Source: Gammaproteobacteria bacterium (lineage in GTDB: Bacteria; Pseudomonadota; Gammaproteobacteria; JABDGN01). Taken from it: a stretch of DNA of 64,000 bases. The position numbers were made by a program, and so were the translations under genes. Of the stretch, positions 53,355-55,070 are shown one piece after another. The stretch lies in NCBI GenBank assembly GCA_034112285.1, contig JAWUVP010000016.1, positions 14,403 to 78,402 on the forward strand, given 5' to 3'. Numbering within the stretch: the first letter of the stretch is position 1; each line of letters starts with the position of its first letter. Under the pieces are notes generated by a model, which saw nothing but the letters and a program-made list of their open reading frames with translations, made no database searches and was not told the origin of the DNA.

Positions 53355-54110
53355 ATGAAAAAATTTAAAATAATTTCACCCCTTTTAATCCTTCTTTCCC
53401 TAGTCGGATTTTCAGCTTACGCGGCCAATGCCGTTGTTGGAACCTGCGATATTGGCAGTGGGACGAATAGCGGATTTTGGTTTTTTCAAAATTTACCTGA
53501 TAACCATAATTTAAATATTAAATACGAAGCTTTAGACGTAGCTGGTGGCGTATATAACAATAGCCAGCTGCCTCCTGGCCTACATTGCTTGCCCTTACCC
53601 AAGCCTGATGCAACATTAAGAATGTGCTTAACATATGATGGAGAGGGGTGTTCAGACTTAAGCACATCTGAGCAATCAAGTTCGGTACAATCAGCGAGTT
53701 GTTTTGAAGATGCATGGGATAATCAAGCAAGACCAGGATGCTACTGGGCACCCAATAGACCGAGGCCAAGCCCTCAAGGTACTCCCGGCATCATAAAAGC
53801 TTCCTGCGGAACTGATCAAATGGGATTTTGGTTTAACCAACATAATTTTGATGAACATCGGAAGAATATGAACCTTTATTATTTAGTGGCTACAGGCTCG
53901 TATTATAATAATAGCCAGCTTCCCGCAGGCTTACATTGTCTTCCTCTACCGGCCCAAGGAGCGAGTATAAGAGTTTGTCAGTCACAACCAGGAGGGCCAA
54001 GAATTAACCCGCTTTGCTTTACTAGCACTGTTGATCTCGATAACGCAAAAGCCGTGACATGCAACAGTAAGTATAGGACTTGTGGTTGGTCTTCAGAAAA
54101 GCCGACATAA
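53355..54110 (+). CDS. secreted cysteine-rich protein, internally duplicated (paralog 1)
   Basis: AGGAAA SD, then ATG, then signal peptide MKKFKIISPLLILLSLVGFSAYA. Two half-repeats, each with GFWF.Q...YNNSQLP.GLHCLP.P...IR.C. About 14 Cys. Confidence 0.65.
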   Translation: MKKFKIISPLLILLSLVGFSAYAANAVVGTCDIGSGTNSGFWFFQNLPDNHNLNIKYEALDVAGGVYNNSQLPPGLHCLPLPKPDATLRMCLTYDGEGCSDLSTSEQSSSVQSASCFEDAWDNQARPGCYWAPNRPRPSPQGTPGIIKASCGTDQMGFWFNQHNFDEHRKNMNLYYLVATGSYYNNSQLPAGLHCLPLPAQGASIRVCQSQPGGPRINPLCFTSTVDLDNAKAVTCNSKYRTCGWSSEKPT

Positions 54111-54323
54111 AAATGGGGCGTCAAGACGGAGCAATCAACAAGCAAGCCTTGCCGAAAAATAAGTAGAGCTTAAAAATAATAAATAATCGAAATTTGATTT
54201 GGCGAAAACTGCGCTATTCCATACTTTTGGGGTCATTTTCGCTAAAGTATATCAACGATTTGTAGACACATGGGCGGCATAATATTGCCCCTTTGCAATA
54301 AAATTAACAATAGGACAACACAC

Positions 54324-55070
54324 ATGAAAAAATTTAAAATAATTTCACCCTTGTTAATCCTTCTCGCCCTAGTCGGATTTTCAGCTCACGCGGCCAGTGC
54401 CGTTGTTGGAACCTGCGATAGTGGCAGTGGCACGAATAGCGGCTTTTGGTTTTTCCAACATATGCGCGATAACCAAAATTTGAAAGTTGAATATGAAACA
54501 GCTAATAATAGCGACATGTATAACAATAGCCAGCTTCCCAGCGGCCTACATTGCCTACCCTTGATCAAGCCTGATGCAAGCATAAGGGTCTGTATGACTG
54601 TTGACAACGAACAATGTTTCGACTTAAGACCATCCGAGCAGCCAAGTACGGTACAATCGGCTAGTTGTTTTGAAGATATATGGGCGCCTAGACCGAGAGC
54701 AACATGCTACTGGGACGTAACTAGACCGAAGCCGAGTCCTCCAGGTACTCCCGGCATCATTAAGGCTACATGCGAGCTTAATGATCCTCAGGAACCAAGC
54801 AAGATGGGCTTTTGGTTTCGTCAGCATAATACTAGAACGCATATGTCTGTTGCTTATTTAAAAATCACAGGCACTCATTATAACAATAGCGAGCTTGGCG
54901 AAGGCTTACATTGTCTTCCTCCACCGGCTCAAGGTGCGAGTATAAAAATCTGTGAAGCAGGAGGCGATGATGACTGCTTTACAACCACCGTTGATCTCGA
55001 TAACGCAGAAGGTGTTACTTGTAACAATGCTTATGACGTTTGTGGTTGGTCTTCGGTAAAACCTACGTAA
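54324..55070 (+). CDS. secreted cysteine-rich protein, internally duplicated (paralog 2)
   Basis: AGGA SD, then ATG, then near-identical signal peptide MKKFKIISPLLILLALVGFSAHA. Collinear with paralog 1, including the C-terminal VTCN..Y..CGWSS.KPT. Confidence 0.65.
   Translation: MKKFKIISPLLILLALVGFSAHAASAVVGTCDSGSGTNSGFWFFQHMRDNQNLKVEYETANNSDMYNNSQLPSGLHCLPLIKPDASIRVCMTVDNEQCFDLRPSEQPSTVQSASCFEDIWAPRPRATCYWDVTRPKPSPPGTPGIIKATCELNDPQEPSKMGFWFRQHNTRTHMSVAYLKITGTHYNNSELGEGLHCLPPPAQGASIKICEAGGDDDCFTTTVDLDNAEGVTCNNAYDVCGWSSVKPT

Follow-up and report, generated by a model that had tools for sequence, protein, structure and literature searches.

The window analyzed here is a 64,000-nucleotide stretch of a gammaproteobacterial contig (JAWUVP010000016.1, positions 14,403 to 78,402). 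Two consecutive open reading frames (ORFs) on its forward strand, A (P0001) and B (P0002), encode small cysteine-rich proteins with signal peptides and follow a giant gene for an inverse autotransporter. An earlier note, made from the DNA letters alone, had described the two as a tandem paralogous secreted pair with near-identical signal peptides, each built from an internal duplication; both ORFs were found in place, and this description holds throughout. The features of the pair are as follows (lengths in amino acids, aa).

53343..53346, + strand: AGGA ribosome-binding site of A, with the ATG 8 nt further on; read from the sequence; inside the duplicated unit
53355..54110, + strand: ORF A (P0001), 251 aa, predicted two-module cysteine-rich exported protein
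53355..53423, + strand: signal peptide of A, MKKFKIISPLLILLSLVGFSAYA, with an AXA cleavage motif
53424..53777, + strand: N-terminal six-Cys module of A and Pro-rich linker (RPRPSPQ), delimited by alignments, BLASTP, and Smith-Waterman comparison
53778..54107, + strand: C-terminal six-Cys module of A (the modeled one)
54312..54315, + strand: AGGA ribosome-binding site of B, with the ATG of B 8 nt further on
54324..55070, + strand: ORF B (P0002), 248 aa, paralog of A
54393..54743, + strand: N-terminal six-Cys module of B and linker
54744..55067, + strand: C-terminal six-Cys module of B

Genes A and B and their six-cysteine module

A and B share 63% sequence identity over their full length (BLASTP E 1e-116). 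Their leaders, identical at 21 of 23 residues, display a K-rich start, a hydrophobic core, and, ahead of the cleavage point, AYA or AHA; both lack a lipobox and a twin-arginine motif. After cleavage, mature proteins of 228 (A) and 225 (B) aa remain, both hydrophilic; the isoelectric points of A and B are acidic (5.9 and 4.9, respectively). Each protein contains 12 cysteines, six per module, and not about 14 as counted in the earlier note. By homology, the start of B lies at ATG 54324. An upstream ATG at 54270 would give a version of 266 aa, which is probably over-extended, because the DNA similarity between A and B sets in only ~25 nt before the MKKFK start. Our reading of the DNA demonstrates that A and B are real genes for exported proteins, with predicted signal peptides of the signal peptidase I (SPase-I) type.

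The two modules of each protein are ~110 residues long. The N-terminal halves match the C-terminal halves in BLASTP with E values of 1e-14 to 1e-19, and Smith-Waterman scores between them amount to 120-156, compared with 27 +/- 5 for shuffled sequences (z 19.5-28, 500 shuffles), so the proposed internal duplication is borne out by the half-domain alignment. The same is true of the proposed fourfold repeat of a cysteine-framed module, as A and B together contain four alignable six-Cys modules. When these are aligned with the modules of three relatives described below, 20 columns are invariant among the seven, all six cysteines included, resulting in the pattern C..GF(W/Y)F..Y..Y.NS.L..G.HCLP..A..C..C..C..C.W. 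All motifs quoted in the earlier note (GFWF.Q, YNNSQL..GLHCLP, and the C..CGWS tail) are present. Six cysteines per module allow three predicted disulfides, and since the cysteines occupy even-numbered, invariant positions in the module, intramolecular bonds would be favored.

In a distance tree of the modules, the two N-terminal modules group together (A_N, B_N), as do the two C-terminal ones (A_C, B_C), placing the duplication within the gene before the tandem duplication of the gene. The DNA copies repeat at a spacing of ~966 nt. As reconstructed from these comparisons, the ancestral form was a one-module secreted protein of 143 aa that became a two-module gene by internal duplication; a unit of ~966 nt that takes in the ribosome-binding site was then duplicated in tandem to give A and B.

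Divergence between the two copies is uneven. The first ~120 nt of the coding sequences (53355-53475 versus 54324-54444), comprising the leader and 16 mature residues, are 93% identical, versus ~70% for the remainder, which suggests gene conversion or a strong constraint on the leader. The ratio of nonsynonymous to synonymous substitution rates (dN/dS) between A and B is 0.31-0.33 (dS ~0.7), and both copies are under purifying selection. Across three independent assemblies (the window, one contig from JGI, and one from Logan), neither gene differs by a single base, a weak test given that these assemblies are 99.95% identical overall.

Relatives, predicted fold, and source organism

Database searches placed A and B in no recognizable family, as the earlier note had supposed. 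Scans of Pfam, NCBIfam, PHROGs, and PADLOC, including 24,736 Pfam-A models and 18,950 NCBIfam models, returned no matches for the full proteins or single modules, even at E 1-10; sequence and profile searches of the PDB gave no significant match, and tblastn of A and B against plasmids and phages gave none. From a 5.8-billion-cluster protein database, query A recovered only A itself and B. When 1.84 billion representatives were searched exhaustively with phmmer, two further proteins of 143 aa, P0004 and P0005 (E 1e-13), emerged, and a profile search added one more relative, P0009. P0006-P0008, which appeared in the representative search at E ~1e-4, were dismissed as long repeat proteins matching over short stretches. 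The metagenome search for the signature motifs that the earlier note had recommended yielded no further members among GTDB species representatives and JGI metagenome contigs, the source contigs evidently lying outside both collections.

P0004, P0005, and P0009 are hypothetical metagenomic proteins of 143 aa, each consisting of a signal peptide and one module, and are homologous to A and B at E 1e-13 to 1e-43. They contain the same six cysteines and the motifs GF(W/Y)F, Y(N/D)NSQL..G.HCLP, and CGW; their hydrophobic leaders end in ANA, VSA, and VHA. All five proteins have a K-rich, hydrophobic N-terminal leader with an AXA motif, followed by at least one module of the form C1..GF(W/Y)F..Y.NS.L..G.HC2LP..C3..C4..C5..C6.W, by which we define the family. 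On the evidence of these searches, the six-Cys family is new and very rare, nearly orphan, and lineage-restricted.

P0004 and P0009 stem from the window contig's own metagenomes (JGI 3300041954/3300041950; SRR25824424/25); looking up the sample accessions in the literature gave no result. The larger relative loci, L003 and L007, correlate with the window in tetranucleotide composition with r values of 0.946 and 0.958, compared with 0.85-0.88 for other related loci, and the two proteins are probably paralogs encoded in the same genome as A and B. P0005 comes from another sample. Downstream of it, a 44-aa ORF (MSMNKLKFVSTTPMLLLVSQLPLVAQA..., L010 596-730) resembles the P0005 signal peptide and is probably what is left, in truncated form, of a tandem duplicate in another organism, so that tandem duplication would recur at the P0005 locus.

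That homologs were found in only a handful of metagenomes would fit a reading in which A and B are non-functional, either chance ORFs or decaying duplicates. This is contradicted by dN/dS values of 0.18-0.33 in the family (0.18 for P0004 versus P0009), by the conservation of 12 out of 12 cysteines per protein, by intact ribosome-binding sites and signal peptides, and by reading frames identical in three assemblies. The selection signal effectively refutes such a reading, to which we attach almost no weight.

To a first approximation, the module is predicted to be a beta-sandwich. An AlphaFold2 model of the C-terminal module of A, computed with the seven-module alignment, is all-beta with 7 strands (predicted local distance difference test, pLDDT, 67; predicted template modeling score, pTM, 0.63), and the conserved motifs GFWF, HCL, IRVC, and CGW are placed in predicted strands. 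The full-length model is poor (pLDDT 55), yet displays the same strand pattern in both halves. Foldseek comparison of the module model with the PDB and BFVD (viral models) yielded only generic beta-sandwiches of the FN3 or immunoglobulin (Ig)-like type, all at E 0.2 or above, and the candidate folds put forward in the earlier note (beta-trefoil, C-type lectin, and PA14) found no profile or fold match. C2 domains are eukaryotic, eight-stranded, membrane-binding beta-sandwiches; none of the 7 modules matched the C2 Pfam profile at E up to 10. The affinity of the predicted sandwich is uncertain.

Judged by a variable stretch of RpoC, the nearest relatives in GTDB are the metagenome-assembled genome (MAG) of an uncultured gammaproteobacterium at 77% and an uncultured Coxiellaceae MAG at 68%; several lineages, Candidatus Berkiella among them, follow at ~65%. 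We tentatively assign the source organism to a Coxiellaceae-like gammaproteobacterium. One neighbor of P0004 has a weak Fic-like match (23.9 bits, just below the 24-bit Pfam cutoff) and another is a RING-finger protein (zf-C3HC4_3); the neighbor coordinates are L003 10574-11785 and L004 10163-10723, and many orphan ORFs without signal peptides lie around. These neighbors look, as a hint, like effectors of a host-associated bacterium. Convergent with P0009 is a 378-aa orphan (L007 2268-3404, minus strand) with ...LELRF at its C-terminus; outer-membrane beta-barrel proteins typically finish on such an aromatic residue.

Periplasmic inhibitors are typically beta proteins that are small, acidic, exported by Sec, and rich in disulfides. 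A and B share these traits, and in an organism that appears host-associated they might be protective or structural proteins of the periplasm or envelope, acting as inhibitors of host lysozyme or proteases or as disulfide-linked envelope components similar to those of chlamydiae. However, the profile libraries that returned no Pfam-A or NCBIfam match include the periplasmic inhibitor and chlamydial cysteine-rich envelope families, and the cysteine positions noted above speak for bonds within the molecule. We consider a protective or structural role of this type decidedly doubtful.

The cassette and its inverse autotransporter

The genes and elements that frame A and B are as follows.

48389..48763, - strand: rpsL (ribosomal protein S12), left flank of the cassette; Pfam Ribosom_S12_S23 on the identical gene in L001
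49272..53249, + strand: giant gene, inverse autotransporter (type Ve) with signal peptide, N-terminal IAT beta-barrel, and ~1050-aa right-handed beta-helix passenger
55112..55151, no strand assigned: bidirectional intrinsic terminator, a hairpin with arms of 17 nt between an A-run and a T-run, common to B and the convergent rpoC
55175..59410, - strand: rpoC, right flank; Pfam RNA_pol_Rpb1 domains on the identical gene in L001

The giant gene, A, and B lie on one strand, separated by gaps of 105 and 213 nt (53250-53354 and 54111-54323), neither of which contains a terminator-like site on the + strand. The 95-nt stretch with the terminator hairpin after B has a folding energy of -33.8 kcal/mol (z -3.9). 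We infer from this layout that the three genes are co-transcribed as an operon-like cassette. The tight linkage of A and B to the giant gene, emphasized in the earlier note, is thus upheld in terms of strand and terminators, with none between the genes and a strong one after B, but it is not conserved, recurring at none of five homologous loci.

The cassette (48764-55174) is opposite in strand to both of its flanks, rpoC and rpsL. At the corresponding locus of the Coxiellaceae MAG (L012), rpoC is followed directly by rpsL-rpsG-fusA-tuf, and this uninterrupted order identifies the adhesin-A-B cassette as an insertion. Its surroundings showed neither flanking repeats nor tRNA genes nor Rfam elements, and no integrase was seen. 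The otherwise conserved string rpoB-rpoC-rpsL-rpsG-fusA is broken by the cassette.

The giant gene probably starts at ATG 49284, resulting in a protein of 1321 aa (JGI call). Residues 1-303 match IAT_beta (PF11924, E 3.6e-12, 46.9 bits versus a cutoff of 22.3); this domain was missed when the full-length protein was scanned against Pfam and was recovered with residues 1-303. The passenger matches Beta_helix (PF13229, E 1.6e-27) as well as NosD, with repeats from about residue 420 to 1000, C-terminal to the barrel, which is the type Ve order. The protein is devoid of cysteines and has about 40 homologs in metagenomes. Its passenger carries 135-nt (45-aa) tandem repeats (window 50795-51250), and three of the few single-nucleotide polymorphisms that distinguish the window from the JGI and Logan assemblies cluster in one of these repeats (50909-50924); either the repeat itself varies or the differences could arise from assembly. 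Passengers of the pectin-lyase or beta-helix type have been described previously for inverse autotransporters (Heinz et al. 2016, PMC4943183), and with its IAT_beta barrel and Beta_helix repeats the giant fits this group. The likeness concerns the giant, not A and B, and all five inspected homologous loci are without accessory proteins.

Several observations concern the wider surroundings. At 45269-47882 of the window, an rpsJ ORF of 166 aa comes right after fusA with no tuf in between, whereas the relative L012 has a tuf-sized ORF of 397 aa after fusA; 166 aa seems long for ribosomal protein S10. The window further contains a gene for a eukaryotic-type (alpha) carbonic anhydrase (793-1518; Pfam Carb_anhydrase, E 2.8e-46) and, next to a homolog of phosphatidylethanolamine-binding protein (PEBP), two ORFs of 384 and 433 aa (14340-17721), both orphans that match nothing in Pfam. 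Upstream of these lies a Bat/MoxR-VWA operon (6281-13214).

Possible functions of A and B and comparison with known systems

The reading we favor, tentatively and with somewhat less than even confidence, is one of Sec export and oxidative folding, after which the proteins would act as stable binders at the envelope or outside it, perhaps in concert with the type Ve adhesin. A and B would be disulfide-stabilized, non-enzymatic beta-sandwich proteins of a lineage-restricted orphan family. Once exported by Sec and folded oxidatively in the periplasm, they could act as stable binding modules in the envelope, on the cell surface, or in the medium, serving adhesion or host interaction together with or parallel to the adhesin.

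A number of observations weigh against this proposal. The searches made revealed no known domain and no significant structural match for A and B, and most of the conserved motifs lie in predicted strands, where their role may be structural instead of ligand-binding. The adhesin-A-B linkage was seen in one genome only; a Cys-rich secreted gene lies downstream at none of the five homologous autotransporter loci (P0011, P0012, P0013, P0014, and P0021), and the family members P0004, P0009, and P0005 sit at unrelated loci that have no autotransporter as neighbor. Neither A nor B resembles the Cys-free passenger of the giant (BLASTP best E 0.15, short segments). Because the linkage to the giant is not conserved and the relatives occur at unrelated loci, the lectin, toxin, or receptor-binding role proposed in the earlier note remains a guess. 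Co-expression of A and B with the adhesin is plausible, whereas the sequence data do not support an obligate partnership.

The closest autotransporter homolog, P0011 (L091 6001-10077), is a second beta-helix inverse autotransporter, 48% identical to the giant, from the same sample set and with a window-like tetranucleotide signature. Downstream of it are two unrelated orphan genes of ~600 aa; we rejected these as a comparable pair, as they are not paralogous and have no signal peptides.

A and B might also be independent secreted factors directed at a host, released through type II secretion or in vesicles to bind host vacuole membranes or glycans. The autotransporter would then be a coincidental neighbor; we regard this alternative as unlikely, if not negligibly so.

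In a bolder reading, the modules constitute a new extracellular domain fold-family confined to one uncultured, tentatively Coxiellaceae-like lineage. A and B would be either non-Ig partners that dock on or are released by the beta-helix inverse autotransporter, making a multi-protein type Ve adhesion system of a new kind, or C2-like modules, locked by disulfides, that reach the host vacuole and bind membranes there. This reading is quite unlikely in our estimation. If the reading we favor is right, A and B would add an undescribed extracellular domain family, with five carriers among about 15 billion proteins searched, that offers a compact disulfide-rich scaffold and a clear evolutionary route by which one module became two and the two-module gene a tandem pair. 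Coupled to a type Ve adhesin in an uncultured bacterium with hints of host association, A and B would also represent a candidate accessory component of inverse-autotransporter systems. In more sober terms, A and B represent a new sequence family, but its class is commonplace; orphan families of secreted proteins specific to one lineage are numerous, and the immediate importance of this one is modest.

The known system closest in layout is zirT-zirS-zirU, in which an inverse autotransporter gene is followed by genes for small Sec-exported proteins and the secretion of ZirS depends on both Sec and ZirT (PMC2270342; PMC4943183). By analogy, A and B could be cargo that reaches the periplasm through Sec, and the upstream inverse autotransporter would then move them across the outer membrane or serve as their docking site, which would make the cassette a multi-protein type Ve adhesion system. 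The matching gene order, the operon-like layout, and the ZirS precedent itself (PMC2270342, PMC4943183) offer an argument for this. However, the autotransporter's own ~1050-aa passenger would occupy the barrel, A and B lack the similarity to the passenger that marks the known cases, and neither the homologous autotransporters nor the single-module relatives show such a pairing. We judge a cargo relationship improbable.

In the known systems, the small proteins encoded downstream resemble the Ig-like domains of their autotransporter (PMC4943183). This is the case for ZirS and ZirU with respect to ZirT, whereas A and B do not resemble the beta-helix passenger of the giant; A and B are, in addition, cysteine-rich, and their pairing with the autotransporter is not conserved in homologous loci. 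Despite these differences, the two systems are alike in their arrangement as an acquired cassette, with an inverse-autotransporter gene followed by two small, paralogous genes on the same strand, whose products carry Sec signals and are, in the case of A and B by prediction, all-beta.
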